A stretch of 44,954 nucleotides of DNA from a phage. Position 1 is the first letter of the stretch. Every line of letters starts with the position of its first letter. The notes beneath the pieces were generated by a model. It was not told the DNA's origin. It did not search any database and was given only the letters and a program-made list of their open reading frames with translations. The position numbers and the translations under genes were made by a program. The stretch lies in the sequence record OZ503098.1, one strand, 5' to 3'. Shown here one piece after another: positions 4,649 through 17,638 of this stretch.

Positions 4649-4677
4649 AATATAATGCAACCAATCTAATTATGCAA
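4649..4677 (-). promoter_or_regulatory. Sigma70-like promoter built from two direct ATTGGTTGCAT copies (TTGCAT, 17 bp spacer, TATATT); a GC hairpin (4626-4646) lies in the leader
   Basis: Minus-strand reading: ATTGGTTGCATaattagATTGGTTGCATTATATT; the first copy supplies the -35 and the -10 follows the second copy after a 17-nt spacer. Confidence 0.35.
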
Positions 4678-5005: not shown

Positions 5006-5697
5006 TTTAAATTTTCCTCATTGACTGCTATCGCGAAGCCGCGCGGGGTGAGTGAGCGGATTAATTTTGTACGAGCGGATTTACCACCGAGGCGACTATA
5101 CTGCGTCGAGTACCCTTTTTCAACGAAAACAGGTTTCTTCTCTGGCATACGGAAGCCGTTGCCGGTCCACAAGCAGGTCAGCTTCGGATATGAATCGCGG
5201 GCGTTGATGTATTCCGGGAAGAGCGGGTGTACGTCATCCTCCGGCAGATAGCCCCCATACTCCCACGGGTCAAACGAGTGGTCTGGCTTGCGCCATTGGG
5301 TTGATAGCACGCTGCGCGGATTCTCAATCATATATGGCACTTCGAAGAAGTCCCCCAGGTAAGCGGCGATCTTCGCGGTACGCACCGCCTTAAGCTGAAA
5401 GGCTGGGTCTTTTGCCCGCTTGCGCGGGAACGCTTGCGCACCGCTCACCGCCAGATCAGTACACGGCGGGAATGCGTAGATGATATCCGGCGTACCGAAA
5501 TCACCATTCATCGCGCGGTCTACAAAGTCCAGATCAATAAACTCATTGCGATATCGGATCCCACGACCATAAATCCGGTAGTCCAGGTACGACCCGTGAT
5601 CAGCTTCGGAGTAGTTGAAGCAATAACACTTATGCCCCATCTCGGCAGCACGCTCAATCATCAAGCCGCTGCCGTCAAATAATGACCAGATAATCAT
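5002..5697 (-). CDS. Compact C5-cytosine methyltransferase-like protein (231 aa)
   Basis: Motif I-like LFDGSG (FxGxG), motif IV-like FPPC (Pro-Cys) followed by LAVSGA, motif VI-like ENP; unusually short and without an obvious target-recognition domain. Translationally coupled to the helicase (ATGA overlap at 5694-5697). Confidence 0.5.
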   Translation of the reverse strand: MIIWSLFDGSGLMIERAAEMGHKCYCFNYSEADHGSYLDYRIYGRGIRYRNEFIDLDFVDRAMNGDFGTPDIIYAFPPCTDLAVSGAQAFPRKRAKDPAFQLKAVRTAKIAAYLGDFFEVPYMIENPRSVLSTQWRKPDHSFDPWEYGGYLPEDDVHPLFPEYINARDSYPKLTCLWTGNGFRMPEKKPVFVEKGYSTQYSRLGGKSARTKLIRSLTPRGFAIAVNEENLK

Positions 5698-7118
5698 TTG
5701 CGCGCCTTTTTAGCTTTCATGTATTCCATCAAATCGTCCTGAATATCGCGCTTACTGTCGCGACGCTCGGCGACCAGTTCGTCAAGTGTTCCGCGTGCCT
5801 GGATAATATAGACGAATACAGGACGGGGGTGTCCGGCTTGCATCTGGCGAACCGGCCCGATACGCTCCACGATCTGCGAAAAGTGCTCAAAGTTCCAGGT
5901 GTCTGAGAAGATAGCAAGGTGGTGCCCACCGTCCTGCAGGTTGAGGCCGTGGCCCGCAGATGCCGGGTGCGCAAACATGATGGGGATCTCGCCCCTGTTC
6001 CATGCTTCCATATCCTTATTTCCTTGCTTACCCTTACCCATCGCTACGCCGTGCGGGAATTTCTTCTTGAGACGCGCCAGGTCATGCTTGTACTGGTATG
6101 CGACGAGCAACGGTGCTCCGTTCAACTCCTCCACGATACTTTCCAGCGCGTCCAGTTTGGCGTCGTGGATTTTCACCCATTCGTCGGTGCGCTCGCCGTC
6201 TTCGTCGACTTTATACACGGCCCCGGAAGCAAGCTGAAGGCACTTAATAGTCTTCGACGCAGCGTTCGCCGCCTCCACTGTTCCGCTTTCCAGTTCCGCA
6301 AATAGCTCCGCTTCGAACTGGTCATAAATCTTGCGGGCTTTCTTCGGCAGGTCCACAACAACCGGCGTATATATTGGCTTGTCACATCCGAAATATTCAG
6401 CCGCATCAACGGTTAGCGACACGTCTGACAGGCGTTGTTGTATTTCTTTCTCGGAGTTTTTTAGCGGGGCGTGCTGCATAGTGAAGCTGCCAGGCTTAAC
6501 CGGCTTGCTAATAAACCAGCGGTCTGTGAATGCCTTATAACTACTGCCGAGGCGTTCGCCACCGTCTACAAACCACGTCTGCCCCCATAAGTCCTTCAGC
6601 CCGTTTGGTGCGGGTGTGCCGGTAAGGTTAATCCAGCGTTTGACGTGCTTATGCGCAATAGCCGCCAGCGCGCGGGCGCGCTTACTCCCCTGCTTGCTTC
6701 TATAGCCTTTCAGCTTAGTGGATTCATCGGCAACAACTACCGTAAAGGGCCACTCGTCGCCGCAATACTCGACAAGCCACTCAACCACATCATAGTTAAC
6801 GCAAACCACGTTAGCGTCGCTCTCGAGCGCCGCGATGCGGTCCTTCTCTGGCCCAGTGCCGTCTACTACCAGCAGGGCTGGGAAACGCCATTTCTCCTGC
6901 TCCGGTGGCCATGTACCGGACGCAACGCGAAGCGGGGCCAGCACCAGTACGCGGTCCTCCTGGCTGGACAGGATACCAGTCTGGAACATTTTATTCAGCG
7001 CCCACATAGTCGCGCCGGTTTTACCCGACCCCATTGTCGCCCATATATTGCATCGCTTATGTTTTAGGATGAACGCGGTTATCAACTTCTGATATTCGCG
7101 ACGTCGGAAACGTGCCAT
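5694..7118 (-). CDS. SF2 (SNF2/DEAD-like) DNA helicase
   Basis: Walker A GSGKTG, DEAD-like box VVADESTK, C-terminal helicase domain; start placed at ATG 7118 (MARFRRREYQ) with an upstream RBS-like GGCGGA. Confidence 0.7.
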   Translation of the reverse strand: MARFRRREYQKLITAFILKHKRCNIWATMGSGKTGATMWALNKMFQTGILSSQEDRVLVLAPLRVASGTWPPEQEKWRFPALLVVDGTGPEKDRIAALESDANVVCVNYDVVEWLVEYCGDEWPFTVVVADESTKLKGYRSKQGSKRARALAAIAHKHVKRWINLTGTPAPNGLKDLWGQTWFVDGGERLGSSYKAFTDRWFISKPVKPGSFTMQHAPLKNSEKEIQQRLSDVSLTVDAAEYFGCDKPIYTPVVVDLPKKARKIYDQFEAELFAELESGTVEAANAASKTIKCLQLASGAVYKVDEDGERTDEWVKIHDAKLDALESIVEELNGAPLLVAYQYKHDLARLKKKFPHGVAMGKGKQGNKDMEAWNRGEIPIMFAHPASAGHGLNLQDGGHHLAIFSDTWNFEHFSQIVERIGPVRQMQAGHPRPVFVYIIQARGTLDELVAERRDSKRDIQDDLMEYMKAKKARK

Positions 7119-7122
7119 ATCT

Positions 7123-7341
7123 TTATTCCGCCTTTTTCCAGACTTCGGTTTCACTGTTCCAGTTCCTTTTTGTGGCGTCGTAGTTGGTGGCGTGTCCGAT
7201 GTGGACACCGGTGGCCCGGAAGCGCTTAAACTTCTGCCAGCACACCGTCAACGGCAGCGGGGAATTAATGTCCGCGATAAACCATACGCGATCTCCTGGT
7301 TTACATTCGCCCAGCTTGGTGAGCCGGTAGCGTTCTTTCAT
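7123..7341 (-). CDS. Hypothetical small protein (72 aa)
   Basis: ORF with GGGAG RBS 8 nt upstream of ATG 7341. Confidence 0.35.
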   Translation of the reverse strand: MKERYRLTKLGECKPGDRVWFIADINSPLPLTVCWQKFKRFRATGVHIGHATNYDATKRNWNSETEVWKKAE

Positions 7342-7353
7342 CGTCATGTCTCC

Positions 7354-7377
7354 CAAAAATGGCGGGACAAGCCCGCC
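7354..7377 (-). terminator. Hairpin plus U-run on the minus strand (internal terminator or attenuator)
   Basis: GGCGGG-loop-CCCGCC stem followed by ATTTTT on the minus strand; the stem contains the GCGGGACA word used in the iteron arrays. Confidence 0.4.
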
Positions 7378-7384
7378 GTATTAA

Positions 7385-7558
7385 TTATTTTTGCTCTGCG
7401 CGGTAGCGGCGCTGCCGTTCGCGCTCTTTTTTATTGCGGCACGATTTGCACTCTGCCCGATACCCATCCGGGCTTCGCGCAGTCTTCCCGGTGTATTTAT
7501 GGAACTGTGATAGCGGTTTAACGCAGCCGCAATTACTGCAACGTTTTTCTTCAATCAT
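7385..7558 (-). CDS. Small zinc-ribbon protein (57 aa)
   Basis: CSNCGC...ECKSCRNKK gives two CxxC pairs and a basic C-terminus; GAGGA RBS before ATG 7558. Confidence 0.35.
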   Translation of the reverse strand: MIEEKRCSNCGCVKPLSQFHKYTGKTARSPDGYRAECKSCRNKKERERQRRYRAEQK

Positions 7559-7598
7559 CTCTAAAATCCTCGATATGGCTAACCGGCACACTATACCG

Positions 7599-7877
7599 CT
7601 ATGCGACCAATTCAGCAACCAATAAATCACAGTCGGCGATGTTGTCTATGACGCGAACGTCCGCACCGCGGCGGGCCATCCGCTCATGCTCGCGTACCTG
7701 GTGCGGCTTCGGTTTTCCGCCGGGGCGCTTCACTTCGACGAACACTATTTTGCCGTTGATGATGATAATCAGATCGGGCGCACCCGCGCGCCCCTCCCAG
7801 GCCATTTTGCGGCAGAATCCGCCTACCTCTTTCACCCGTCGCATCAGGTGACTTTGAATCTTGCCTTCTGGTGTCAT
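7599..7877 (-). CDS. VRR-NUC domain nuclease
   Basis: APDLIIIINGKIVFVEVKRPGGKPKPHQ matches the VRR-NUC PD-(D/E)xK core (D...E-V-K); ATG 7877 abuts the upstream stop. Confidence 0.6.
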   Translation of the reverse strand: MTPEGKIQSHLMRRVKEVGGFCRKMAWEGRAGAPDLIIIINGKIVFVEVKRPGGKPKPHQVREHERMARRGADVRVIDNIADCDLLVAELVA

Positions 7878-8476
7878 TGTCGGCTTCTCCTTACGGCAGC
7901 GATGGCGGGTCCGATAAACTTCCGCATTTCGTCCGGGGTAAACCGGTCGCCGCGGGCTATGTTGCACTCTACGCAGCACGGCACACAATTATCTTTAGTA
8001 TGTCCAACCGCATTGTTGAGTCTGTCCACTCCATTGTCGCCGGTGAATCCGCAATACGTACACGGCAGGGAAGTAAGGTGCAGAACGTCCTCGGTTGTTA
8101 GGTCGGTGCTTAACCCCTTCCTTTCGTCTGACTTGCGGTATTGAAAGAGTTTATAGTAGGCGCGGACCTCTGGTGTCCGGCGGTTGTACTCTCGGCGTGA
8201 CTTATTAGCGCACGACCGGCACTCTTTACGGATATGTGACTGGCTGGCCTTGTTTCCTGGGCGGAAGTTCTCCGGCGTAAGCGTCTTGCGCTCCCCACAC
8301 CGGCGACACGTTACGATCTCCCCAGTGTACTCTCGCCATACTTCGCGCGGCGGAGCGCCTCTTTCTTTGTCCCGTCTCTCTTTCTTATATGCCGCCATGC
8401 ATTTGGCGCACCACGACTGGCCCTTGTTGAAAGCGGACTCATCTTTATCCGTATTACAACGCCCACAATGTTTCAT
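7874..8476 (-). CDS. Cys-rich zinc-finger protein with HNH-like C-terminus
   Basis: Several CxxC pairs; C-terminal CTYCGF...VDRLNNAVGHTKDNCVPCCVECNIARG resembles an HNH/zinc-binding nuclease core. Start placed at ATG 8476 (MKHCGRCN) rather than 8584, which would overlap the polymerase gene. Confidence 0.45.
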   Translation of the reverse strand: MKHCGRCNTDKDESAFNKGQSWCAKCMAAYKKERRDKERGAPPREVWREYTGEIVTCRRCGERKTLTPENFRPGNKASQSHIRKECRSCANKSRREYNRRTPEVRAYYKLFQYRKSDERKGLSTDLTTEDVLHLTSLPCTYCGFTGDNGVDRLNNAVGHTKDNCVPCCVECNIARGDRFTPDEMRKFIGPAIAAVRRSRQ

Positions 8477-8543
8477 ATACACCCCCGAAAAAGAAAACGC
8501 CAGACAATAATGCCCGACGTTTCCGCTAAAAGCAACATTTCCG

Positions 8544-10835
8544 CTACTTGCGGTAGCGATACATGCAATCGCCTTCGGCGGCAAGAGGGAAGCCTTTCGC
8601 CCAAACAGGCAGGTCGCACATCAGCGCGCATAGCTCCTCGGTCGTGTAGTCGTCAGTATCCGGAACCTCGGTGATCAGTTCATCGTGTACGGACAGTACG
8701 ATCTCATACCCAGCAGCTTCAACGCCTGGCATGGACCATGCGAGAATATCGCGACACAGCGCCTGCACGATGTTTTCCGTCAGTTTGCCGCCGTAGGTAT
8801 ACTGGAAGCCCCACTGGCGCGTCGTCTGATTCTCGCCCTGGTATTTGATGCGGGTGCTGGTGCGCTTCTTGCCGGTGTCTTCGTCAATCTCGGTCGTGAC
8901 AGACAGCGCAATGCCTGGATAACTCATAATACGCCCCGACGGCAACTCAATTTTCAACCACCACCCTGCGGCGTTCGGGTCGTCGCGCTCCTCGTCGAAG
9001 GTTGGGTCATGCTTCGCCTTCGTGCGAACAATCTTAAGCGCTTTCCTGCCATCCGGGCGAACGTTCGCACCCGCCCAGTATGCTTTGCCAGGATTGCGGA
9101 TCGCGCAGAGCACCGCGTCTTCCAGTTCAGCCCAAAATGCTACCGTCTTAGGGTGAGCCTCGCGCCACATACGTTTGATCGCGTCACACGTCAACCACAC
9201 GTTTTTCGGCAGTATGTAAGTTGGGCGCTCGTCTTTCTTGCCAGGCTTCGGCGGGCGCTTGGCTTCGTTAATGCGGGCATACTCATAACCACGTTTCGCC
9301 GCGGCCCAAATATGATCGGGGAATGTGCCCTTCATGACGTCCGCCATCGCATACAGGTCGAGGCCCAGGTTTTTAGCAAACTGCAGGAACGCTGCAACAC
9401 CGCCACCATAGCCCAACCCCAATTCGCACGCCTTACCAATCTGGCGCAAGTCTTTGCAGTTGGCTTTGATGTATTCCGGGTCGAGGCCAAACATCTTACC
9501 GGCAGTTTCACAATAGATATCGCGACCCGCCCTGAACACCATTAGCGCGGTTTTCTCCCCCGCGATCCAGGCGAGGCCACGCCCTTCCACGTTGGAGAAG
9601 TCAGCTACGACAAACTTCTTACCCTTCGCCGGAATAATGCACCCGCGAACAGTCGAGGCCGTTAGCTTCGATATGTCATACGCCCAGTGCGCTGTCCCGC
9701 GTAACAGGGAGTTGATGCCGTTGGTAAGCATGTGCGACCGCACCCAAAACGCGACGTCGCTCTCGCCTTCACGGCGTTTAATCTTCCCTTCGTGGTCGTC
9801 GCTATACTCGCCGCGTGCCAGGTTTTGCGGCTGGAAGCCTTTGCCGGCCCAGCGTAGCGTGCGTTTTGCCCCGCCATACTGGAGACAACCACGGCGGCGA
9901 CCATCGGCAGACAGCCCATTTACGAGCGGATTGTACTTAGTAGATGCCGTTGATGACGCGCCGAGGCGCATCTCGATAAGCACTTTGCCCTCGTCGGGGA
10001 AGTCCGGGTCTTCCAGCAGTTCGTTAAGCGTGGATTTCTGCGCGTTGTGTATTGTGAACGCAGGCGCGAGGTCGCGCAGCGCTGGCAGGAAGTCATTGCC
10101 GGTCAGCTTACCGCCGAAGCGCTCCCATGCTTCTTCCTTCAATTCTTCCTTATGCGCCTGCACCGCTTTGATCGCGGCGTTAGCCAGGTCAACGTCCACA
10201 TAGAAGCCGCGGTCGTTAATCATCTGGTCAATAAGCAGGATTTCATCTTCCTTCGGCGTGTTGCCCCAGTCTGGTATGCGCCAGTAGACTTCACGCATAG
10301 CAACAATATCCAGCGCGGCGTAGCGCAGGAATTTAGCCCACTCCTCGGGGTGCGTCTCGCGCGTATAGCGACGGATTTTGTAGGTCTTAGGGGTTGGCTT
10401 ACAGAATCGTTTGATTAGCGCCTTGCCAGCCTTATCCTTCGCGTGTTCTGCGTCAACGCCCAACACCTGGCACTGCATATCGAGGCTACCTGGCAGCGCG
10501 TGTCGAAAGGCCATAATCATGGTATCTTCGATCTGGCCTACCGGCAGGTCAATGCCCCACTTCTCGCGAATAACCAGGCGGTCAAACAGGAGGCCGTTAG
10601 CCATCACGATTTTTGCTTTCTTGCGGGATACCCGGCGGAGCGCCTTGCGCAGTTCACGCGGCATTGTGGGGGACTCGGTGCAATCCCATGTCTGCACGCG
10701 GCCCTCGTCGATGGCGTATGTGCAAATCATAATCTCGGTAGTTGGGTGTTCCGCGTAGGCGTATGCGCCCACTTTCTTCAGATCCACCCCGCTAAATGTC
10801 TCGGTATCGAGGAAAAGGCGTTCGAAGTCTTTCAT
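8544..10835 (-). CDS. DNA polymerase I family (family A) with 3'-5' exonuclease domain
   Basis: 763 aa; exo motif FLDTETFSG near the N-terminus, motif B-like RQIGKACELGLGYGGG, motif C VHDE (SVHDELITEV). Confidence 0.85.
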   Translation of the reverse strand: MKDFERLFLDTETFSGVDLKKVGAYAYAEHPTTEIMICTYAIDEGRVQTWDCTESPTMPRELRKALRRVSRKKAKIVMANGLLFDRLVIREKWGIDLPVGQIEDTMIMAFRHALPGSLDMQCQVLGVDAEHAKDKAGKALIKRFCKPTPKTYKIRRYTRETHPEEWAKFLRYAALDIVAMREVYWRIPDWGNTPKEDEILLIDQMINDRGFYVDVDLANAAIKAVQAHKEELKEEAWERFGGKLTGNDFLPALRDLAPAFTIHNAQKSTLNELLEDPDFPDEGKVLIEMRLGASSTASTKYNPLVNGLSADGRRRGCLQYGGAKRTLRWAGKGFQPQNLARGEYSDDHEGKIKRREGESDVAFWVRSHMLTNGINSLLRGTAHWAYDISKLTASTVRGCIIPAKGKKFVVADFSNVEGRGLAWIAGEKTALMVFRAGRDIYCETAGKMFGLDPEYIKANCKDLRQIGKACELGLGYGGGVAAFLQFAKNLGLDLYAMADVMKGTFPDHIWAAAKRGYEYARINEAKRPPKPGKKDERPTYILPKNVWLTCDAIKRMWREAHPKTVAFWAELEDAVLCAIRNPGKAYWAGANVRPDGRKALKIVRTKAKHDPTFDEERDDPNAAGWWLKIELPSGRIMSYPGIALSVTTEIDEDTGKKRTSTRIKYQGENQTTRQWGFQYTYGGKLTENIVQALCRDILAWSMPGVEAAGYEIVLSVHDELITEVPDTDDYTTEELCALMCDLPVWAKGFPLAAEGDCMYRYRK

Positions 10836-11002
10836 TGCTTAATCCTCACTACGGCGTCAGCGCTGCCGATCATGGAGAATATACCGTCGGAAAGGGTTAT
10901 CTCCTCGCCGTTGTTGCGAACCTCGGCAACGGTGAAATATTCCCCCAGTAGCTTGGACCATACCCGCATTCCGACTTTTACTTCGCTGGCTTTAATGCGC
11001 AT
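10832..11002 (-). CDS. Small hypothetical protein (56 aa), coupled to the polymerase gene
   Basis: Not in the ORF track (under 60 aa): ATG 11002 with AGGA RBS, translation MRIKASEVKVGMRVWSKLLGEYFTVAEVRNNGEEITLSDGIFSMIGSADAVVRIKQ; its stop overlaps the polymerase ATG. Confidence 0.35.
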   Translation of the reverse strand: MRIKASEVKVGMRVWSKLLGEYFTVAEVRNNGEEITLSDGIFSMIGSADAVVRIKQ

Positions 11003-11017
11003 TTTTCATTGTCCTAT

Positions 11018-11041
11018 TAAAAAGCCCGCATTAAGCGGGCT
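11018..11041 (-). terminator. Rho-independent terminator on the minus strand after the SSB-like gene
   Basis: Minus-strand AGCCCGC-uuaau-GCGGGCU followed by UUUUU, immediately after stop 11061. Confidence 0.55.
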
Positions 11042-11060
11042 TGAATAGTGGGCTTTGCCC

Positions 11061-11849
11061 TTAACGGCGGCGACGTTTGCGTGGCGCTTCGTCTTCGTCG
11101 TCGTCCTCATCTTCGTCATCGCGTGGCTTACGACGTTTGCGAGGTTTTTCATCTTCCTCATCGTCGTCGTCATCGCGGCGCTTGGACTTTTTGGACTTGC
11201 GCGGCTTGTCATCTTCATCATCGTCATCACGACGTTTTGACTTCTTAGCCTTGCGCGGTGCTTCGTCTTCGTCTTCGTCGTCGTTGTCCAGGTCTTCATC
11301 GGAGCAAGAAGAACCACCACCACCGAAGGATTCGCCGTCATCGCGGAAGCGCAGACCCAGCAAGCCAGCACCGAGTCCCTTGCCGTTGGTATTGTTCCAC
11401 GCCCAGATATCGAGTGACACGTTGCAATAACAACCGGAGTAGATCTCCTGGCCTTCGATCTCGTCGCCGTCGATGGTCAGGCCTTGTTCAGTCTGCTTCT
11501 CGCCGAGTGACGTTTGAATGATCGGCTGTTTGAACGATTTAGCGTTGATGTACAACATGCCTTCGAATTCTTCGGTTACTTCATCGCGCTCGTCGCCGTC
11601 GCGAACTGCGCATTCCTTAGAATCCTGGGCGTAGTGGCGGTCCATCCACTTATCGGCATTCTTCTCAGATTTCAGCTTGTCGGTGAGCACTGCGCGCGCT
11701 GCCGCTTCCACTTTGTCCACCTGCGGATCTTCTTTATCCAGAAGAATCACGGCGCGGTATGCTGGTTTTTGTCCATCCTGTTTAGGGGTATCACGTTCCC
11801 AAATTTTCAGGAAACATACGCGCACATTTTTCAGGTTGACTTTAGCCAT
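11061..11849 (-). CDS. Putative single-stranded DNA-binding protein (DUF2815-like) with a long acidic/basic repeat tail
   Basis: N-terminus MAKVNLKNVRVCFLKIWE resembles the DUF2815 phage SSB-like N-terminus; located next to a DUF2800-like nuclease and PolA. C-terminal about 80 aa are three reiterations of DDDDEDD / KPRKSKKSKRR blocks. ATG 11849 has a GAGGAA RBS. Confidence 0.45.
   Translation of the reverse strand: MAKVNLKNVRVCFLKIWERDTPKQDGQKPAYRAVILLDKEDPQVDKVEAAARAVLTDKLKSEKNADKWMDRHYAQDSKECAVRDGDERDEVTEEFEGMLYINAKSFKQPIIQTSLGEKQTEQGLTIDGDEIEGQEIYSGCYCNVSLDIWAWNNTNGKGLGAGLLGLRFRDDGESFGGGGSSCSDEDLDNDDEDEDEAPRKAKKSKRRDDDDEDDKPRKSKKSKRRDDDDDEEDEKPRKRRKPRDDEDEDDDEDEAPRKRRRR
11080..11290. repeat. 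In-frame tandem repeat (about 60-bp units, three copies) encoding the acidic/basic tail of the SSB-like protein
   Basis: Repeated GTC/GTCGTC/ATC and CTT/TTT/GCG runs at DNA level; the protein shows the RRDDDDEDDKPRKSKKSKRRDDDDDEEDEKPRKRRKPRDDEDEDDD periodicity. Confidence 0.5.
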
Positions 11850-11939
11850 TTTCCAATTCCTCATTTTCACATGTATCGGGGTTATTGGAAGCCACCCCGT
11901 TCGGCTTGGTTGCTAATCTACTTGGTTGCGCCTGAGCGG

Positions 11940-12182
11940 TCAAGCATTTTCGTTAAAAAGATTTCGGGTAACGTAGTTGGTAGCGTTCTCGATCCAGCTT
12001 AGCGGCGGTCGGTCGATGTTCTTTTCCACCCAATCGACGGCAACTTCGCTATAGCCGTCATCCAGCCAGCGGGTCGGATGGCGAATCATCCACGCCACCA
12101 TTAACACGCCTTGCACGCAATGCAGGATAAAGCCCAGCGCGCCGAGCAAAAACATCAATAAGATTGCGAATACTTTATTCAT
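11940..12182 (-). CDS. Small membrane protein (80 aa)
   Basis: Two hydrophobic segments (FAILLMFLLGALGFIL and VLMVAWMI); starts 2 nt after the upstream stop. Confidence 0.45.
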   Translation of the reverse strand: MNKVFAILLMFLLGALGFILHCVQGVLMVAWMIRHPTRWLDDGYSEVAVDWVEKNIDRPPLSWIENATNYVTRNLFNENA

Positions 12183-13605
12183 TGCTTAAGTCCTCATCAG
12201 TGGCTTCAGACCACACAGGGCGCGGGTCGTCTATTGGGGCTAATACCGGTTTAGCCGGTGCGCGCGTGATTTTATCACACAGCTTCGCCCACACTTTCGG
12301 TTTTTCGTCCTTCAATACCTTCTCGGCATCCGTAGGGCTGAGCAATGTTTCTTTGTACATCACATCGCGCTTGATCCGGGCCTTCGTGAAGATTTCAATC
12401 ACTTCGCTCTCGTCCGCCCACTTACGGATCCCTTCCTTACCGGCAACCATCTTGAGGCCCAGCGATTCGCCATCGCCCGCCATGACCGCCTTGAATACCG
12501 CGGACTCGATAGCCTTGATGTGCTGGCGCATTGCGTCCAGGCCTTCATAAGCCTTGCGCAGTTCCGCAGCGCTCATAGCACCGGGGGCCGCTTCTTTCTT
12601 ACCACGCTTCGCACGTCGTGCCGCCTTCCTGGCTTCGCGGGCTATATTGCGGTCATGGTTGGCGCATTCTTCCTCTGTCGCAATACTCACGTCGTCGCCC
12701 AGGTCTTCGTCGGTTGCCGTTGGGTGTGTCATCGTGTCGATTGCGGCCTTAGCGCGGGCACTACACTGATCCGCAAATCGGCACCACTGGCACGCATCAA
12801 CGCTGGGGCGGAAGTCGGCACGGGTAAGCCCCTTCTTGCCTCGGGAATACGACTCCAGTGCGGCGATAGCACGCTTGGATGCGAACTTCGCGAATATCTC
12901 CAGCGCTTCTACCGAAATATCCCACTCCGACGCCCCGCCGCAATACGGCTGGAAGATAACCAGTCGCACGGTCGTAATGTCGTACATAGTTTGCAGCTTG
13001 CGCAGCAGGCCGAGCGCGTACAACATAAGCTGTTTGTTCTCTTTCGCCTCGACCTTATGACGCCCGGTCTTCAGGTCGCCAACAATCAGCATGTACGTCC
13101 CATCGGTCTTTTTCATGACCATGACCATATCGGCAGTACCGAACGTTTTAATCCTGTTGCCGTCGATCTCGTAGCCTGAGTGAAGGACGCGGGTCAGATC
13201 GGCGTGCATCTCAAGCTGAACAAACTCCGCCACTTCGATGAGCGGTCGCCAGTGGTCTATGTACGCGTCGCACTGTTTCACCATGTCGTCGTTGACCAGT
13301 ACGCCGCCTTTCGGTGCTTTCGGGTGTGCCTTTACCGGCCCCTTGCCTTCGTTCTCGACGTAGCACCCTTTATACGTCTTCGCGGTTATCAGCTTCTCAC
13401 CGGCTATAATGCGGTTTAGCACCACCTCCGATACGGTGTGCATACTCGTACCGTTAATCGCGGCTTGCCCGGATTCGTTCGGGATATCTTTTTCTACCAC
13501 CAGGGCGGCTGGGCAACCCATCCATTTTTTAGCACCGGATGGCCCGAGTAATGAGTGTTCCGTATTGCTGCCGGATTGCGTCTTACGTTTTGGTTTAATC
13601 GCCAT
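12175..13605 (-). CDS. DUF2800-like PD-(D/E)xK (Cas4/RecB-like) nuclease
   Basis: N-terminal LLGPSGAKKWMGCPA matches the characteristic DUF2800 opening (SxSGAxRWxxCP); C-terminal Cys cluster (CQWCRFADQC); paired with the DUF2815-like gene. Confidence 0.55.
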   Translation of the reverse strand: MAIKPKRKTQSGSNTEHSLLGPSGAKKWMGCPAALVVEKDIPNESGQAAINGTSMHTVSEVVLNRIIAGEKLITAKTYKGCYVENEGKGPVKAHPKAPKGGVLVNDDMVKQCDAYIDHWRPLIEVAEFVQLEMHADLTRVLHSGYEIDGNRIKTFGTADMVMVMKKTDGTYMLIVGDLKTGRHKVEAKENKQLMLYALGLLRKLQTMYDITTVRLVIFQPYCGGASEWDISVEALEIFAKFASKRAIAALESYSRGKKGLTRADFRPSVDACQWCRFADQCSARAKAAIDTMTHPTATDEDLGDDVSIATEEECANHDRNIAREARKAARRAKRGKKEAAPGAMSAAELRKAYEGLDAMRQHIKAIESAVFKAVMAGDGESLGLKMVAGKEGIRKWADESEVIEIFTKARIKRDVMYKETLLSPTDAEKVLKDEKPKVWAKLCDKITRAPAKPVLAPIDDPRPVWSEATDEDLSNE

Positions 13606-13793
13606 TATTCCACCCGTGTAAATTGAGCAATGTAATAGTCATGTTCAACATTGGCCCGCTTAGCGGCATTGTTCATGGTAGCCGCCAGCCCCAGGGCTTG
13701 CATCCAGCAGCAATTCCAGTTTTGATTCATAACAATTTCCGGTTGCTCGTCGCCGGTAATACGGCAACGAAATAAAACAAAGAATATAGCCAT
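13605..13793 (-). CDS. Hypothetical small protein (62 aa)
   Basis: ORF with GGGAG RBS before ATG 13793; stop overlaps the next ATG (TAATG). Confidence 0.35.
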   Translation of the reverse strand: MAIFFVLFRCRITGDEQPEIVMNQNWNCCWMQALGLAATMNNAAKRANVEHDYYIAQFTRVE

Positions 13794-14045
13794 TTATTTT
13801 GTCTCCCAGCGGTCAATCGTTCTTGCTTCGGATGCAACCGCGAAGCGAACATATTCCAGATTGGAGTCTGCCCAAATATAAAAGTCGGGGTTAGTAAAGG
13901 TGGTGCGCTTAATTTGCGCGGGTGTGTTACGGCGTTTATCTATTACCGCAACGCGGGATTGAAAGCTGCCGATGCGTTCGAATAGCCAATAGTACGGGCG
14001 CTGGTCGCGGGAATCCACCGCCTCGATTAGCGTGAAGCGTGCCAT
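13794..14045 (-). CDS. Hypothetical protein (83 aa)
   Basis: ORF with ATG at 14045; no motif recognised. Confidence 0.45.
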   Translation of the reverse strand: MARFTLIEAVDSRDQRPYYWLFERIGSFQSRVAVIDKRRNTPAQIKRTTFTNPDFYIWADSNLEYVRFAVASEARTIDRWETK

Positions 14046-14057
14046 TGTCTCGTCCTC

Positions 14058-14085
14058 TAAAAATAGGCCCGCAGATTAGCGGGCC
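14058..14085 (-). terminator. Hairpin plus U-run on the minus strand inside the early leftward operon
   Basis: Minus-strand GGCCCGC-uaaucu-GCGGGCC followed by UAUUUUU; lies between stop 14094 and start 14045. Confidence 0.4.
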
Positions 14086-14093
14086 GGATAATA

Positions 14094-14219
14094 TTAATCT
14101 TCACCGCCGAGTTGTTTATAAACCTCGTCCGGGTCGTCGCCTCTTTCTTCGCAGAAGGCGGTGAATGCCGCCCAATTTTCTGCTATGAAATCGAGCATGA
14201 TTCTCATTTCATAGTCCAT
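14094..14219 (-). CDS. Hypothetical small protein (41 aa)
   Basis: Internal ATG 14219 of the 14094..14435 ORF (MDYEMRIMLDFIAENWAAFTAFCEERGDDPDEVYKQLGGED), starting just after the stop of the upstream gene at 14224. Confidence 0.3.
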   Translation of the reverse strand: MDYEMRIMLDFIAENWAAFTAFCEERGDDPDEVYKQLGGED

Positions 14220-14223
14220 GATA

Positions 14224-14769
14224 TTAATCTTCCAGTTCGAAATAAGTTTCGACGATTTCTTTAAGATCTTTGTGGAAGTCTTCGACGTCTTCATCTTCCA
14301 GCTTGGCGATTGATTTGATCTCAAACGATTCCAGCAGGTCGTCAAATTCGTCGTTCGCGTCGTCGTCGTCACCACCCGCGATAATAGCGGCGTACTGTTT
14401 GATTTCGTCGCGCATCTCTGCCAGCGGGTCGGCATCTTTCTTACCTTTGCCTTTCGCCGGTGCTTTTTTACCCTTCGCGGGCTTCACGTCATCGGCATCA
14501 TCGTCGTCGTCGTCATCTTCTACGACTTCTTTTTTGGCCTTGCCTTTAGACTTGGTTTCTTTTGCCGCGCCTTTTTTCGTTTTAGGCGTATCTTCGACTT
14601 CGTCCTGATCGTCGTCGTCTTCGACTTCAGTCTCCGGCTTGGCCTTGCCTTTCTTAGCAGTGCCGTTTGCTTTTGGGTCTACGGCAGCGCCAACGGTTTC
14701 ATAATGCTTAGCGATGGTTTCCAGTGCTACTACGCCGCGAGTAATCAGGTTTACGATTTGTTCAAACAT
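14224..14769 (-). CDS. First leftward early gene: highly charged low-complexity protein (181 aa) with alternating poly-Asp/Glu and Lys-rich blocks
   Basis: ATG 14769 with GGAGATATACC RBS; EVEDDDDQDEVEDTPKTKKGAAKETKSKGKAKKEVVEDDDDDDDADDVKPAKGKKAPAKGKGKK; first gene downstream of the divergent control region. Confidence 0.55.
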   Translation of the reverse strand: MFEQIVNLITRGVVALETIAKHYETVGAAVDPKANGTAKKGKAKPETEVEDDDDQDEVEDTPKTKKGAAKETKSKGKAKKEVVEDDDDDDDADDVKPAKGKKAPAKGKGKKDADPLAEMRDEIKQYAAIIAGGDDDDANDEFDDLLESFEIKSIAKLEDEDVEDFHKDLKEIVETYFELED

Positions 14770-15033
14770 GGTATATCTCCGATTGGTTAAGTTTGGCGTC
14801 CGGGCGGTATGCCCGGTCGACGAGGGAGATATTAGATTGGTTGCAGAAGGGAGTCAACAACTAATTTCAAAAAAAAGCGCCGAGGCAAAATGCAACGGCG
14901 CTAACCAATAAGAGACAATGAGACGGGAATTATTATTACACGCGTGCGCGCCCGTTTCAATATTCCAAAGAAGTTGACACCCTACGGTTTTAGGTGTAGT
15001 TTCGTTGGTCATTAACCAACCGAGGACAGAGCA
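14770..15033. promoter_or_regulatory. Divergent early control region: leftward promoter (about 14932-14960, TTGAAA-17-AATAAT on minus), rightward promoter (about 14974-15002, TTGACA-17-TAGTTT), leader hairpins at 14800-14816 and 14867-14902
   Basis: Only place where the two strand blocks diverge; consensus TTGACA -35 on plus; back-to-back -35 elements 14 bp apart flanking palindromic ACGCGT/GCGCGC words; minus-strand hairpin AGCGCCG...CGGCGCU followed by U8. Confidence 0.5.
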
Positions 15034-15363
15034 ATGAATGTAAACGACGCAATCGAAATGTTAACGAAGACTGTTAGCAGTGAAACAAGCCGGTCATGGG
15101 CGTATACCGATGCCGTGGGTGCGGTGCTATTTGAAATCGAACGTCTGCGACTTACCGAAAAAGAATTGCGCGCGAAGCTGGAATTACTCAACGGTACTGC
15201 AGCAAGCAAGCTGCAAAAGCACAATGAAGAAATGGAAGAATACAAAAAGCAGGTTATCCGTTTGCGCGCCGAGGGCAAATCCTGGGCGATGATTGCCGAG
15301 TTGACCGGAATTAATCAGAGCACTGTGCGCTCCTGGGTGCGCAATAATAAAACTTCCAAATAA
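15034..15363 (+). CDS. Helix-turn-helix DNA-binding regulator (sigma-70 region 4 / LuxR-type HTH at the C-terminus)
   Basis: C-terminal RAEGKSWAMIAELTGINQSTVRSWVRNN is a typical HTH (region-4-like); N-terminal coiled-coil-like segment; GAGGA RBS; first gene of the rightward block. Confidence 0.6.
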   Translation: MNVNDAIEMLTKTVSSETSRSWAYTDAVGAVLFEIERLRLTEKELRAKLELLNGTAASKLQKHNEEMEEYKKQVIRLRAEGKSWAMIAELTGINQSTVRSWVRNNKTSK

Positions 15364-15367
15364 GGCT

Positions 15368-17638
15368 ATGACCATGAGTTTAATTAAATTCGCAGTAACA
15401 AGACCCGCTAAAAAAGGCGAAAAAGCCAGGGCGGAAAACTTCCAGATGACCACCGATGAATTTTTCGAATTTATCAAAGATGCGAAAGAAATCTCCTCGG
15501 TGCATATCAATAAGACGGAAGATAAAGCCGAGTATGCGCGCCGCAAGCGTAAGGCCGATGGCATCGTGGCATATACCAGTGACGGCCTTCGCCGCAAGAC
15601 CAGTGCGGTGGACCGCTCGATCCTGTTCTTCGATATTGACCGTACCGACACCCGCACCCTACGCCGCTGCCGTAAGGCGTTCATTGACGCGGGTCTGGAA
15701 CACGTATTTCACACCACAACCGGCGACCGTCACCCACTGAAAGGAGGCACGCGTTGCGCCCGTTTCCTGGTGTTAACTGACAAGCCTGTACCGGCTGAAG
15801 ACCTGGGCCGCGTCCAGTATGCACTATTACACCAACTGGGTCTGTCAGATGTGGACTTCGACGATTGCACGAAAGACACAAACCGCCTGATGTACCTGCC
15901 TCACCAGCAGTCTGTTATTAAGTGCCACTACGGCAAGCGCGCCCGCGTCCGCCGTCTGCTCCGCCTGGCTGATAAGCTGGGAGTTGAGAAAGAGGAAGTA
16001 CGCCGCGAGCTTACCCAGGGCGACGACGCAGTGGCAGACGGCATTCTGGACTGGTGCTTCCAGGCAGGATTCGAGGAGTTATCTTCCGGGCGGGGCTTTG
16101 AAGTGCCGTGCCCGAACGAACATCTGCACAGCGGCGAAGGGTCGACGGCTATCATGGTCAAGGATGGCGAGATCCGTTTCAAGTGTATGCACACCGGCAA
16201 CGAGTGTTGCTCTGAACTGAATAGACACCAACACCTGGCGCTACGTCTTATCGGCATCCCGGACCACCTGAACGTCGAGCCACACAATATGTCCCGTAAG
16301 CAAATCGCCGCCATCCTTCCGGGGCTGGACGACGAGGAAGTCGAATCCTTATATGAACATATTGTTGATGCGGTTGGCGACGGCGAAGAATACGGCGTGT
16401 GCACCGATGCGGATCTGGATAACGAGCCGGTCGCGCTGTTCAGTAAGCACGACACGATTATCGAGGGGTTGATTAACTTTAAATCGACCTGGTACATGGC
16501 GGGTGAGTCGAATATCGGTAAGTCTTTCTATGTGCTGGGCCAAATGGGCGCGGTTGCCGCCGGTATTCCGTTTGGTGGTGCGAAGGTCGTCCAGTCTCAT
16601 TGCTTCTATTTCGACGCGGAAGGTGGCGAAGCCTCCAACCAGCGTAAAGAAGCATTGCAGATTAAATACGAGCACGACCTGGACAAGCTGCACATTATAG
16701 ACCTGCAGTCACGCGGCTGGGATATCACCAGCAAGTCCGGCTTGCGCGAAGTTATCAGTTTTATCAACCGCACCGCTAACGGCGAGCCGGTTGGCCTGGT
16801 GGCGTTCGACTCACTCAACCAGACTGTTGCGTTGCGGTCCGCCGAGGCTAAACCGTTCGACGAGAACAACGCCAGCGATATGGGCGAAGTGGTCAAAGCG
16901 CTGAAGGCCATCGCGGAAAACACAGGTGGCAGTGCGGGCGTCATTCACCACCCGGCGAAAGGTGCAAACGGCAGCAGAACCCCACGCGGGTCCGGCGCGC
17001 TGCATGGTGCTGTCGATTCCGCTTTCTTCCTGGAACAGCCGGACGACAACCAGCCCGGACAATTGAACCTGTATCACGAAAAGTCACGTAACGGCATCAA
17101 GCAAGCGCCGCGCGGCTTCGTCCTGCTCAAGTGCAAAGTTAAGGTGGATCTCCGCAAGTCAGAAGCGTTCGAGGCGCACCAGTCCACCAGCACCGGGCCA
17201 GACTTCGGGGATGTGGTTGCCGGTTGGGACGTCAAGCCGATCGCCTCCACGCCACGCGACGAGACTCTCTACCTCGTACCGGTTGCCCTGGCACCGTTCG
17301 CTATTGAACAGGCGAAGGCGGCAGGCAAGGCCGCGGTTAAGGAAGAGAACACCGCCGGACCGCGCAACGGAAAAGAGAAAGTGCTTTATGCTGCACTGGA
17401 AAAACTGATGGAAGATAACCCGGACCATACTGGATTCAGTAAATCGGCGATTGTCCGCCAGGCGGGACTCGCGAAAGGTGGCACGTCGACGAAGGCAATC
17501 GACGATATGGTGGAGCGCGGCGTGATAGGTTTTTACACCGATCCGCACACCGGGGCCATCTATGGGTCGTCTAATTTGGTCATCAAATCGGATATCCCAA
17601 TCACGCTTTCAGCGACCGATGAAGACTTAAAAGATTAA
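15368..17638 (+). CDS. Primase-helicase: archaeo-eukaryotic-type primase-like N-terminal domain fused to a RecA-like P-loop NTPase
   Basis: N-terminal LFFDIDRTD (acidic DxD-type motif), central Cys/His cluster (CPNEHLHSGEG...CMHTGNECC), C-terminal Walker A GESNIGKS and Walker B-like LVAFDSL. Confidence 0.7.
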   Translation: MTMSLIKFAVTRPAKKGEKARAENFQMTTDEFFEFIKDAKEISSVHINKTEDKAEYARRKRKADGIVAYTSDGLRRKTSAVDRSILFFDIDRTDTRTLRRCRKAFIDAGLEHVFHTTTGDRHPLKGGTRCARFLVLTDKPVPAEDLGRVQYALLHQLGLSDVDFDDCTKDTNRLMYLPHQQSVIKCHYGKRARVRRLLRLADKLGVEKEEVRRELTQGDDAVADGILDWCFQAGFEELSSGRGFEVPCPNEHLHSGEGSTAIMVKDGEIRFKCMHTGNECCSELNRHQHLALRLIGIPDHLNVEPHNMSRKQIAAILPGLDDEEVESLYEHIVDAVGDGEEYGVCTDADLDNEPVALFSKHDTIIEGLINFKSTWYMAGESNIGKSFYVLGQMGAVAAGIPFGGAKVVQSHCFYFDAEGGEASNQRKEALQIKYEHDLDKLHIIDLQSRGWDITSKSGLREVISFINRTANGEPVGLVAFDSLNQTVALRSAEAKPFDENNASDMGEVVKALKAIAENTGGSAGVIHHPAKGANGSRTPRGSGALHGAVDSAFFLEQPDDNQPGQLNLYHEKSRNGIKQAPRGFVLLKCKVKVDLRKSEAFEAHQSTSTGPDFGDVVAGWDVKPIASTPRDETLYLVPVALAPFAIEQAKAAGKAAVKEENTAGPRNGKEKVLYAALEKLMEDNPDHTGFSKSAIVRQAGLAKGGTSTKAIDDMVERGVIGFYTDPHTGAIYGSSNLVIKSDIPITLSATDEDLKD

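Follow-up and report, generated by a model that had tools for sequence, protein, structure and literature searches.

The replication and recombination module of a Dhillonvirus siphophage, with a short tail peptide common to its nuclease, DNA-binding protein and primase-helicase

We analyzed a phage sequence of 44,954 nucleotides (OZ503098.1; the whole stretch is called the window below), in which the initial annotation had placed a replication and recombination module at positions 8544-13605. All of the genes named there exist, and profile searches assigned every ORF to the family proposed for it and not to unrelated ones, although the interval covers only half of the module. It holds only five genes, all on the minus strand, for a family A DNA polymerase (PolA), a 56-aa ORF, a ssDNA-binding protein (SSB), an 80-aa ORF and a DUF2800 nuclease; the genes for a VRR-NUC nuclease, a SNF2/SF2 helicase and a primase-helicase lie outside it, the last being transcribed divergently from the nuclease-SSB-Pol genes. 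The ORFs of the module are real genes, being long, coherent in strand and strongly matched to families. The phage belongs to the genus Dhillonvirus, 137 records of which were found by megablast at 91-95% identity with identical gene order and annotations. The module is an ordinary, previously annotated replication and recombination block of a common E. coli phage, and its novelty is limited to one feature, a short matching tail peptide common to the nuclease, the DNA-binding protein and the primase-helicase.

The leftward operon (all genes on the minus strand) opens with the gene for a highly charged low-complexity protein of 181 aa (14224-14769; phrog_3127, E 8e-50), the orthologs of which vary in length from 143 to 231 aa. 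An 83-aa ORF (13794-14045; phrog_4965, E 1e-36) is the ortholog of HK578 gp43, and its position fits HK578_043; a frameshift in gp43 lets HK578 escape the OLD defence (bioRxiv 10.64898/2026.07.10.737580). The DUF2800 PD-(D/E)XK nuclease (476 aa) is encoded at 12175-13605. Its Pfam score for DUF2800 was 223.7 bits against a cut-off of 21, and that of the SSB for DUF2815 (PF10991) was 109.3 bits against a cut-off of 26, which excludes chance; PDDEXK_1 was also matched by the nuclease, with 32.8 bits. The enzyme is Cas4/AddB/AdnA-like with four conserved cysteines: its best Foldseek matches were Cas4-family ACE1, AddAB, AdnA, RecE and MGME1, and the residues D159, D177, K179, Q192, Y196, C31, C272, C275 and C281 were invariant out to Staph phage 3A and the Chi-like phages. 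We infer an Fe-S cluster in this nuclease, and likewise its polarity. The nuclease gene is followed by an accessory ORF of 80 aa that contains a hydrophobic, membrane-like segment (11940-12182; phrog_11211, E 5e-53).

The DUF2815 protein, an Enc34-type (T7 gp2.5-like) ssDNA-binding and annealing protein (11061-11849; phrog_112, E 3e-57), starts at M8 (11849; AGGA 9 nt upstream) or at M3 (11864). Judging from its sequence, it is homologous to the solved DUF2815/Enc34 ORF6 structures (PDB 4KLK, 4JG2 and 5ODJ, E about 1e-11), and behind its OB domain it has an 87-aa tail in which acidic and basic blocks alternate, with RKRRRR at the end. A conserved 56-aa ORF (10832-11002; phrog_10102, E 2.8e-42), also found in SO-1, JLBYU60, HK578 and Bas14, separates the SSB from PolA (763 aa, 8544-10835; Pfam DNA_pol_A 57.6 bits against 34.3; phrog_17, E 3e-131). 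PolA has an N-terminal 3'-5' proofreading domain and no 5'-3' exonuclease domain, and matches Taq/Klenow at motifs A and B. The residues D10 and E12 (Exo I) and Y172 and D176 (Exo III) of its proofreading domain were invariant in seven phage lineages, as were D412 and E417 (motif A), R464, K468 and L472 (motif B), and H717, D718 and E719 (motif C) of its polymerase domain.

The HNH-like genes said to be interleaved near the polymerase are present, both of them on the minus strand and outside 8544-13605. The larger, an endonuclease VII/HNH-like free-standing gene (200 aa, 7874-8476; phrog_1035 'endonuclease VII', E 1.7e-39; phrog_2255 HNH, E 8e-9), occupies a variable slot directly downstream of PolA, in which HK578 carries a different, 110-aa gene; its product had no Pfam match and resembled the HNH enzyme PacI non-significantly (E 3.4). 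The smaller (111 aa, 4670-5005; phrog_99 'HNH endonuclease', E 2.2e-16; Pfam HNH_3 E 0.085, under the cut-off) has counterparts, SO-1 gp31 and JLBYU60 gp34, that are annotated as putative HNH endonucleases. The other minus-strand genes of this region are those for the VRR-NUC nuclease (92 aa, 7599-7877), a 57-aa 'Lar-like' zinc-ribbon ORF (CxxC...CxxC; 7385-7558; phrog_5558, E 1.6e-18) and the SNF2-family SF2 helicase (5694-7118). The VRR-NUC protein (Pfam VRR_NUC 25.9 bits, cut-off 23.8) contains the motif GAPD...EVK, matches the PDB entry 4QBN 'Nuclease' over its full length (E 2.8e-22; 4QBO, E 5.9e-14) and is a probable Holliday-junction/branch resolvase. The zinc-ribbon ORF is related to the N-terminal zinc-ribbon repeats of the 7874-8476 protein (BLASTP, 42% identity over 45 aa, E 9e-5). 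The start of the helicase was placed at M31 of the ORF (474 aa) from the 1425-nt orthologs in SO-1, JLBYU60 and HK578; it scored 42.1 bits for SNF2-rel_dom against 24.9 and 17.5 bits, under the cut-off, for Helicase_C (phrog_62 'DNA helicase', E 7e-157).

A divergent intergenic control region (14770-15033 on the gene map) separates the leftward nuclease-SSB-Pol operon from the rightward one. It contains leftward sigma-70-like sites at 14960-14932 and 14857-14829, a count not above that in shuffles, and the HK578 annotation has three promoters in the corresponding region. On the plus strand, the gene for a 109-aa helix-turn-helix (HTH) protein (sigma-70 region 4-like; 15034-15363; Pfam HTH_23 30.7 bits, Sigma70_r4_2 27.9 bits; phrog_9366), the ortholog of HK578 gp45, is co-transcribed with the primase-helicase gene (756 aa, 15368-17638). 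The latter protein is a fusion of an AEP primase domain (residues about 1-200), a C-H-C-C zinc module (248-281) and a RepA/DnaB-like RecA-fold helicase (about 350-600). The label 'AEP-type' found no profile support and was confirmed by the fold and the conserved catalytic residues (DxD/D); the helicase part is RepA/T7 gp4-like, with a profile match to T7 gp4. Mutations in this gene or its promoter allow HK578 to escape the OLD defence (bioRxiv 10.64898/2026.07.10.737580). Directly 3' of the gene lie non-coding repeats (17639-18118), comprising 7 copies of GCGGGACA and inverted repeats, which fit the 'region B' repeat_region of SO-1 and are a candidate origin or regulatory array.

The modules of other Dhillonvirus members (HK578, Sodalis phage SO-1, BASEL Bas14 'TheodorHerzl' and JLBYU60) have the same content and order gene for gene, with DNA identity of 91-95%. 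PolA is uninterrupted here, whereas in SO-1 it is split within motif B, at the position of codon ~470, by a group I intron that carries an HNH ORF. HK578 has neither the HNH-like gene of 200 aa nor the 80-aa ORF (it had no match for 11950-12174), and the repeat number of the SSB tail differs between this phage and its relatives. The N-terminal region of the primase is 95-99% identical to most members; in HK578 this region (75% identity) and the HTH protein are divergent.

Beyond the genus, the pairing of DUF2800 and DUF2815 recurs as the initial annotation had proposed: 1394 phage records contain a DUF2800 relative, and the same gene order was seen in more than 10 unrelated phage groups, the conserved module being found in Kaguna-, Cornell-, Chi- and Salvovirus, Staph 3A, phiFL4A, and Vibrio and Rhodobacter phages. 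ER24 (Chivirus), Bacata (Salvovirus), Vibrio 1.017.O and RcMaeve keep the core order DUF2800 - DUF2815 - PolA - VRR-NUC - SNF2 with a primase transcribed divergently, and Staph 3A, phiFL4A and Javan638 have a rearranged version. This duf2800-gp2.5-polA module has already been described (PMC8093625), in a group formed by the Chi-like/Enc34/'Nazgul-like' phages and Firmicutes siphophages (PMC5686142, PMC8093625). Phages of that group have other primase types (VirE/D5-like, or Prim-Pol plus SF3), three insertions of the Dhillon/Guernsey lineage are missing from their PolA, and their protein identity to the present module is only 25-35%. The description of the pair as functionally unresolved is partly outdated, given that DUF2815 is a T7 gp2.5-type SSB by crystal structure and gel shift, with ssDNA binding by Enc34 ORF6 (PMC5686142), that the module has been described, and that the Dhillonvirus DUF2800 protein itself is reported to trigger retron type IX in a nuclease-dependent manner (bioRxiv 10.64898/2026.07.14.737667).

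The tail peptide was found at the C-terminus of the nuclease (PVWSEATDEDLSNE, 12178-12219, minus strand) and of the primase-helicase (ITLSATDEDLKD, 17600-17635, plus strand). It is matched by the motif SDEDLDND in the translation of the SSB (11280-11303, minus strand), which lies just after the OB domain and whose D184, L187 and D190 hardly vary across the aligned SSBs; the shared form here is TDEDL. The tail of the nuclease co-varies with that of the SSB of the same phage (z = 5.0, reached by 0 of 50000 permutations; 0 of 100000 in 13 annotated phages). By analogy with the tails of T7 gp2.5 and gp4, the shared tail probably docks the three proteins to one common site. It is possible, if considerably less probable, that the motif has no docking role and reflects how acidic disordered tails are in general, or occasional within-genome gene conversion between tails. 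All of the tails are rich in D/E and cross-phage scores are high too; composition alone yields a small signal (shuffled tails, z = 2.0, 1516 of 50000), the phage's own SSB came top at no more than 4 of the 33 de-duplicated loci, and the primase tail is mismatched in several phages (RcMaeve, Vibrio, kuwaak). However, little of the signal survived the order-destroying controls (reversed tails, z = 0.6; internal 14-mer, z = 1.1), exact strings are common to the tails inside one phage (ATDSDLDD in SP-031, VTEEDLE in Golestan, ASDFA in kuwaak and AWD.ED in Chi-like phages), and in crystals of Enc34 ORF6 the corresponding stretch docks into a groove of the neighbouring SSB molecule (PMC5686142).

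The arrangement of the nuclease and SSB genes is like that of lambda Exo/Beta and RecE/RecT, in which an exonuclease gene adjoins the gene for a single-strand annealing protein and the nuclease binds its annealase partner. RecE and lambda Exo were also among the structural neighbours of the DUF2800 nuclease, although the putative annealase here is of the OB-fold gp2.5 type and not Rad52-like, and the nuclease differs by its Cas4-like signature of four cysteines and its large additional C-terminal domain. An unlikely alternative is that this nuclease is mainly replicative, a core replisome part which, like the T7 gp6 5'-3' exonuclease, removes primer RNA and degrades host DNA for nucleotides. 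The window has no other candidate for primer removal (PolA lacks a 5'-3' exonuclease domain, and the searches yielded neither RNase H nor FEN), and the nuclease gene lies in the same operon just upstream of those for the SSB and polymerase. In addition, no retron escapers were isolated in Queuovirinae phages, where the authors suggest that the trigger may be essential (bioRxiv 10.64898/2026.07.14.737667). On the other hand, the nuclease is 97.5% identical to its ortholog Bas14_0045 (B14T), which sets off retron IX only with D177/K179 intact, and premature truncations of which gave viable retron escapers (bioRxiv 10.64898/2026.07.14.737667); the nuclease is therefore dispensable for replication in a Dhillonvirus on the laboratory host. 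Its fold fits end-resection nucleases (AddAB, AdnA, RecE, Cas4) and not flap nucleases, and a gp2.5-type annealase partner is a hallmark of two-component recombinases (PMC8093625).

That the block is instead the replication or maintenance region of a plasmid-like or integrative element, with an RSF1010-like RepB'/RepA primase and helicase, is highly improbable, since the window is collinear over its whole length with complete genomes of virulent Dhillonvirus phages, lysis and structural genes included, the integrase-containing relatives found are separate, distant Firmicutes prophages, and no integrase or partition genes were present among the ORFs scanned. The primase domain has no detectable sequence similarity to RepB' of RSF1010, primase and helicase are fused here in one polypeptide with the zinc module between them, and there is no RepC-like initiator.

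The catalytic residues, the family and fold assignments, the synteny and the tail co-variation computed here fit well with the block being the early-gene module for replication and recombination in a virulent siphophage of the genus Dhillonvirus, in two divergent operons around 14770-15033, and we consider this reading likely as a whole. The initial interpretation is supported, with caveats on coordinates, autonomy and the functional status of the DUF2800/DUF2815 pair. Its 'self-contained' and 'near-autonomous' were overstated: we found neither a clamp or clamp loader nor a topoisomerase, credible ligase or flap nuclease, and the module must therefore borrow host factors, like T7. On the same minimal plan, T7 (gp5, gp4, gp2.5, gp6, gp3) combines a family A polymerase that proofreads, primase and RecA-fold hexameric helicase in a single polypeptide, an SSB/annealase of the gp2.5 fold (PMC5686142), an exonuclease and a junction resolvase, and in both sets several components have acidic C-terminal tails. 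The primase here is AEP-type, whereas that of T7 is zinc-finger plus TOPRIM; the exonuclease is Cas4/RecB-type PD-(D/E)XK, not FEN-like; a VRR-NUC resolvase takes the place of endonuclease I; there is an additional SNF2 helicase; the end of the SSB tail is basic; and no thioredoxin-binding insert was identified.

We infer the division of labour as follows. In the rightward operon, with its HTH protein, the primase-helicase would unwind the fork, presumably as a hexamer, and prime the lagging strand, and together with the polymerase and SSB of the leftward operon it would make up a minimal replisome, still dependent on host factors. The VRR-NUC resolvase and the SNF2 translocase, further downstream in the leftward operon with putatively selfish HNH-type genes inserted between them, may debranch the products and remodel forks or junctions, respectively. 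In functional terms the polymerase would parallel gp5 of T7, the primase-helicase gp4, the SSB gp2.5, the exonuclease gp6 and the resolvase gp3. The DUF2800 nuclease would resect DNA ends and the SSB anneal the exposed strands, a two-component recombination system that may lead to recombination-dependent replication and concatemer formation.

The region 5600-17700 was compared with the phage collection by megablast, and 164 phage records matched, 137 of them at 90-95% identity; in 125 the match extends over 80% of the query or more. Almost all of the matching records are Dhillonvirus phages of Escherichia or Shigella (HK578, Sodalis phage SO-1, JLBYU60, PNS1 and Bas14 'TheodorHerzl'), and the window is collinear with the Dhillonvirus genomes of about 44-45 kb, lysis and structural genes included. 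The window is a typical Dhillonvirus, and the module considered here makes up the early region in a genus of phages that has been sampled well. Across the whole window, the scans for Rfam families and for tRNAs detected nothing. 'Campylobacter phage A144' showed 92.9% DNA identity across 99% of the 12.1 kb query, and it and 'Acinetobacter phage NJ01' (MG065648.1, OQ221563.1) were 98.6-99.1% identical to the window in the N-terminal protein region of the primase; the host labels of these two look doubtful.

The ORF listing and the strand-coherent gene map, with start codons refined against the annotated orthologs, gave a leftward block that starts at about 15012 and extends to 1771, and a second, rightward block that starts at 15034. 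The initial annotation placed a self-contained replication and recombination module at 8544-13605. The genes are real, but that span takes in half of the components it named and holds five leftward genes: the family A DNA polymerase (PolA, 8544-10835), a 56-aa ORF (10832-11002), the DUF2815 ssDNA-binding protein (SSB, 11061-11849, or with a start at 11864), an 80-aa ORF (11940-12182) and the DUF2800 nuclease (12175-13605), all on the minus strand. Outside it lie the genes of VRR-NUC (7599-7877, minus strand), the SNF2 helicase (5694-7118, minus strand) and the primase-helicase (15368-17638, plus strand), and the HNH-like genes (7874-8476 and 4670-5005, both minus strand). The finding is therefore correct in substance and ordinary, with an interval that is too narrow.

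Several small or peripheral genes accompany this set. The 80-aa ORF, which has a long hydrophobic segment, lies between the nuclease and SSB genes with an 8-nt overlap with the nuclease stop, and is found in SO-1, JLBYU60 and Bas14 and missing from HK578. The first gene of the leftward operon (14224-14769, minus strand) encodes a 181-aa protein consisting largely of poly-Asp/Glu and Lys-rich blocks, with orthologs of 143 to 231 aa (HK578, SO-1, JLBYU60), and a conserved 41-aa ORF (phrog_15754) is located just downstream, at about 14094-14219. Outside the module are an ORF similar to HAD phosphatases and polynucleotide kinases (phrog_415; 3006-3476, minus strand) and a 380-aa metallophosphoesterase, 'DNA repair exonuclease' (phrog_704; 21276-22418, plus strand).

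The assignments of PolA, DUF2800, DUF2815, VRR-NUC and the SF2 helicase to their families were borne out by profiles above the curated cut-offs, with the exception of the second helicase lobe described below. PolA matched Pfam PF00476 (DNA_pol_A) at 57.6 bits against a cut-off of 34.3, where only profile positions 138-225 align, and phrog_17 over its full length (E = 3e-131). Taq and Klenow polymerases align to it at motifs A and B, and the Taq motifs A and C also align. In an alignment of the window protein with those from HK578, Kagunavirus, Cornellvirus, Chivirus, Salvovirus and Staphylococcus phage 3A, the residues of motif A (D412/E417), motif B (R464/K468/L472/G475) and motif C (H717-D718-E719) were invariant in all seven phage lineages. 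In the same alignment the proofreading residues D10/E12 and Y172/D176 were invariant and F84-[D/E]85-R86 was conserved; a Pfam exonuclease domain was not detected in PolA at E <= 0.01. The protein starts at Exo I and therefore lacks a 5'-3' exonuclease domain.

Compared with the enzymes of Chi-like, Salvovirus and Staphylococcus phages, the PolA proteins of Dhillonvirus, Kagunavirus and Cornellvirus have three lineage-specific insertions (residues ~345-390, ~495-555 and ~600-630), two of which fall between motifs B and C, and because of these insertions the Pfam model aligns only across motifs A-B. A match of residues 465-561 to phrog_93 ('endonuclease') raised the possibility of an intein or inserted endonuclease, which we rejected since the ORF is collinear with equally long intron-less orthologs. 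The match probably reflects relatives such as SO-1, in which an intron-encoded HNH ORF is present at this place. In SO-1 (L001, 7829-8722), a group I intron of about 0.9 kb with an HNH ORF lies inside PolA, and the alignment places its site between K468 and L472 in motif B (RQIGKAC|ELGLGYG). The window PolA is intron-less at this site (~9426-9428, codon ~470), and the Rfam intron search was empty.

The nuclease matched Pfam DUF2800 (PF10926) at 223.7 bits (cut-off 21) and PDDEXK_1 at 32.8 bits (cut-off 22); DUF2800 has been placed in the RecB-like PD-(D/E)XK class (PMC3424549). The PDB sequence search with this protein found nothing, and only the fold comparison was informative. The AlphaFold model has a pLDDT of 69, with the nuclease core above 80, and its top Foldseek neighbours were the Cas4-family ACE1, AddAB, AdnA, RecE, MGME1, Exo5 and Cas4. 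The residues D159, D177-x-K179 and Q192xxxY196 were invariant in 34 close and six distant homologs, and the cysteines C31 and C272-x2-C275-x5-C281 were invariant out to Staphylococcus phage 3A and the Chi-like phages; the catalytic residues and the four cysteines are kept even in homologs of 26-29% identity (Chi-like, Salvovirus and Staphylococcus phages). One N-terminal cysteine followed by C-x2-C-x5-C is the pattern that marks an iron-sulfur cluster in Cas4, AddB and nucleases related to them. In the nuclease of the window the cluster is a candidate, and the cysteine segments have pLDDT below 50 in the model.

The nuclease is 97.5% identical to Bas14_0045, its ortholog in the BASEL phage Bas14, and the numbering of D177 and K179 is the same in both. 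Bas14_0045 is reported to be sufficient to trigger the type IX retron, the D177A/K179A substitutions to abolish the triggering, and phages that escape the retron to carry missense or truncating mutations in this gene (2026 preprint, bioRxiv 10.64898/2026.07.14.737667). The Bas14 truncation mutants are viable, which speaks for an accessory role of the nuclease in recombination or repair and against a place in the core of the replisome.

The SSB matched Pfam PF10991 (formerly DUF2815, now 'Enc34_ssDNA-bd') at 109.3 bits against a cut-off of 26, with homology to the solved structures 4KLK, 4JG2 and 5ODJ (E about 1e-11). In T7 gp2.5, the C-terminal tail is acidic to the last residue and has a terminal hydrophobic or aromatic residue; this is a functional feature outside the Pfam definition. 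The window SSB does not have such a wholly acidic tail: its tail (11064-11324, minus strand) begins with the acidic SDEDLDNDDEDEDE, then switches between basic (PRKSKKSKRR) and acidic (DDDDEDD) blocks, with APRKRRRR as its last residues. The Kagunavirus protein ends in RRRR, and the Chi-like and Firmicutes homologs have acidic/hydrophobic ends (...DEV, ...DFL). The tail is unusual for a gp2.5-type SSB, and the number of blocks varies among Dhillonviruses (proteins of 245-264 aa).

VRR-NUC matched Pfam PF08774 at 25.9 bits (cut-off 23.8) and PDB 4QBN (E = 2.8e-22), and its PD...ExK motif was found in the sequence as GAPD...VEVK. The SNF2 helicase matched SNF2-rel_dom (PF00176) at 42.1 bits (cut-off 24.9) and phrog_62 (E = 7e-157), although the score of its Helicase_C lobe (PF00271), 17.5 bits, was under the cut-off of 23.5. 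As for the HNH-like genes reported near the polymerase, the 200-aa gene at 7874-8476 is indeed directly beside PolA, but its assignment comes from PHROGs alone (endonuclease VII, 1.7e-39; HNH, 8e-9), with zero Pfam matches and a non-significant PacI-like similarity. Its motif reads VDRLNN...H...N...C..CN, with Arg at the expected first His. HK578 holds a different gene at this position beside PolA, as one would expect if the gene is free-standing and of the homing type. A 57-aa zinc-ribbon ORF ('Lar-like'; 7385-7558, minus strand) was similar to the second zinc-ribbon repeat of the 200-aa protein (over 45 aa, 42% identity with E = 9e-5), and this similarity suggests that both belong to one family of selfish genes, the ORF being a fragment left by duplication or decay.

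The helicase half of the 756-aa primase-helicase matched AAA_25 at 69.8 bits (cut-off 27), and the profile of its homologs matched RSF1010 RepA (2e-8) as well as the helicase of T7 gp4 (6e-3); by sequence, this is clearly a RepA/DnaB-like (SF4) helicase domain of the RecA fold. The N-terminal domain, residues 1-344/345, matched nothing in Pfam (even at E <= 1), NCBIfam or the PDB sequences, the homolog profile aligned to PDB entries through the helicase half only, and an indexed protein search with residues 1-345 returned zero relatives. An exhaustive search found that only 26 representatives among 1.84 billion proteins match this domain. Its distant relatives carry PriCT_2, D5_N, DUF5906, VapE and BT4734-like_N, and PriCT_2, D5_N, DUF5906 and VapE are typical partners of AEP primases. 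The domain has the AEP catalytic fold, D89 and D91 of motif I (DxD) and D165 of motif III are invariant in 17-21 homologs, and the His of motif II is present as H122 in most homologs. The fold settles the AEP-type assignment made in the initial annotation, even though the domain is recognised by no curated profile.

The gene set is not, however, the near-autonomous replisome that had been proposed: a clamp, a clamp loader, a topoisomerase, a flap nuclease and a credible ligase were not found, and the module is not autonomous. A 152-aa ORF (4143-4601, minus strand) labelled 'DNA ligase' by PHROGs and in SO-1 was rejected, with zero Pfam hits and a length far too short for this function; it is missing from HK578. 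The best-supported reading is a T7-like minimal replisome, in which the polymerase, the primase-helicase and the SSB would act together. The putative exonuclease/annealase pair would then serve recombination-dependent replication and concatemer formation, and a VRR-NUC resolvase and a SNF2 translocase would accompany the replisome.

The synteny comparison found the gene order in several phage groups, as the initial annotation had expected of a recurring DUF2800/DUF2815 pair. The recurrent layout, in which the primase gene is divergent from an operon of small ORFs, DUF2800, DUF2815, PolA, VRR-NUC and SNF2, was seen in Kagunavirus, Cornellvirus, Chivirus, Salvovirus, one Vibrio phage and one Rhodobacter phage; rearranged layouts were seen in Staphylococcus, Enterococcus, Streptococcus, Bacteroides and gut 'Heliusvirales' phages, and a DUF2800 relative is encoded in 1394 phage records. 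A 'duf2800-gp2.5-polA module' has been described in phages that infect Firmicutes and in those of Gram-negative bacteria (PMC8093625), and the replication module of Enc34 was listed as primase, polymerase, VRR-NUC and helicase in the study that solved the structure of its DUF2815 protein, showed binding to ssDNA and identified it as a T7 gp2.5-type SSB (PMC5686142). The module is already known, being annotated in >100 nearly identical genomes, with its core gene order published and two proteins characterised structurally or genetically. The description of the pair as functionally unresolved is only partly true today: the structure and ssDNA binding of the SSB and the triggering of the retron by the nuclease have already been published.

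The control regions were also examined. The mutations by which HK578 is reported to escape P2 OLD map to gp43, the gp45 promoter or the gp46 helicase-primase (2026 preprint, bioRxiv 10.64898/2026.07.10.737580), and the window counterparts of these loci are 13794-14045, the region 14770-15033 and 15368-17638. A promoter and terminator scan of 13600-18200 gave counts not above those in shuffled sequences. The 8-mer GCGGGACA is present in 20 copies in the window against 2.0 expected, with seven copies clustered in the non-coding stretch at 17745-17846, which immediately follows the primase-helicase gene, and nine in another such stretch at 33895-34152, upstream of a gene that starts at 34275. The two regions have in common TGCATAA(A/T) boxes and also a GC-rich hairpin (AGACGGGGGG...CCCCCCTCGTCT). 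The segment 34016-34211 shows 83-87% identity to the sequence that follows the primase-helicase gene in SO-1 and HK578, and these stretches are annotated in SO-1 as repeat regions A and B. The arrays may serve as origins, or else as promoter/operator arrays on which the sigma-region-4-like HTH protein would act.

A feature of the module for which no description was found in the literature examined is a short acidic-hydrophobic peptide shared by the nuclease, the SSB and the primase-helicase, C-terminal in the nuclease and helicases and following the OB domain in the SSB. In the window, the nuclease ends in ...EATDEDLSNE and the primase-helicase in ...SATDEDLKD, and the SSB tail starts with ...CSDEDLDND. 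The motif differs between phages (TDEDL in the window, VTEEDLE in Kagunavirus, AWDxED in Chi-like phages, SDF/DDF in many others) and changes in concert within each of them. VTEEDLE ends both the nuclease and the primase-helicase of Kagunavirus Golestan; Cornellvirus SP-031 has ATDSDLDD in the nuclease and ATDSDLDDDD in the SSB; Staphylococcus phage 3A has AEDDFDKL and AEDDFDEL, respectively; and ASDFA is found in both proteins of Achromobacter phage kuwaak. In the Chi-like phages the SNF2 helicase also bears the tail, as in Chivirus ER24 (nuclease GAWDDEDDDEV, SSB DAWDEDEDWEDEV, primase DPFDDEDEV, SNF2 helicase GVWDDEE).

We tested this covariation by permuting the phage labels, in samples that are modest and with phage relatedness only crudely controlled. 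When nuclease tails were compared with the SSB tails of their own phages, the similarity summed over 13 annotated phages was above that in all 100,000 permutations; in a nine-lineage subset, 113 of 100,000 permutations reached the observed similarity, and for the primase and nuclease tails 13 of 100,000 did so. The test was repeated with IMG/VR, where 77 of 80 loci had both genes and 33 were left once related nucleases had been removed; these 33 loci gave z = 5.0, which was reached by none of 50,000 permutations. When the nuclease tail was replaced by controls, most of the signal was gone (reversed tail, z = 0.6; internal 14-mer, z = 1.1; shuffled tail, z = 2.0); composition thus accounts for a little of the signal and the order of the residues for most of it.

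In crystals of Enc34 ORF6, the traceable part of the SSB tail sits in the concave beta-sheet groove of a neighbouring molecule, burying 842 square angstroms, and similar tail contacts were noted in other DUF2815 structures and in T7 gp2.5 (PMC5686142). It is quite possible, if somewhat short of probable, that the nuclease and the primase-helicase are recruited to SSB-coated DNA, or to a common hub (the polymerase, for instance), through tails that mimic that of the SSB and dock to the same site. Such an arrangement would resemble that of T7, in which the tails of gp2.5 and gp4 dock to a common site or hub.

The DUF2800 gene and the primase-helicase operon of Dhillonviruses are of current interest because they are reported to trigger retron IX and P2 OLD or to be loci of escape from them, and the co-varying tails, the four DUF2800 cysteines and the repeat arrays by the primase-helicase gene would make the protein interaction network that underlies these reports directly testable. 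If the reading of the tails is true, tail docking would be a general assembly code for a very widespread phage replication-recombination module, and would offer a handle on how defence systems sense the nuclease and the replication proteins.
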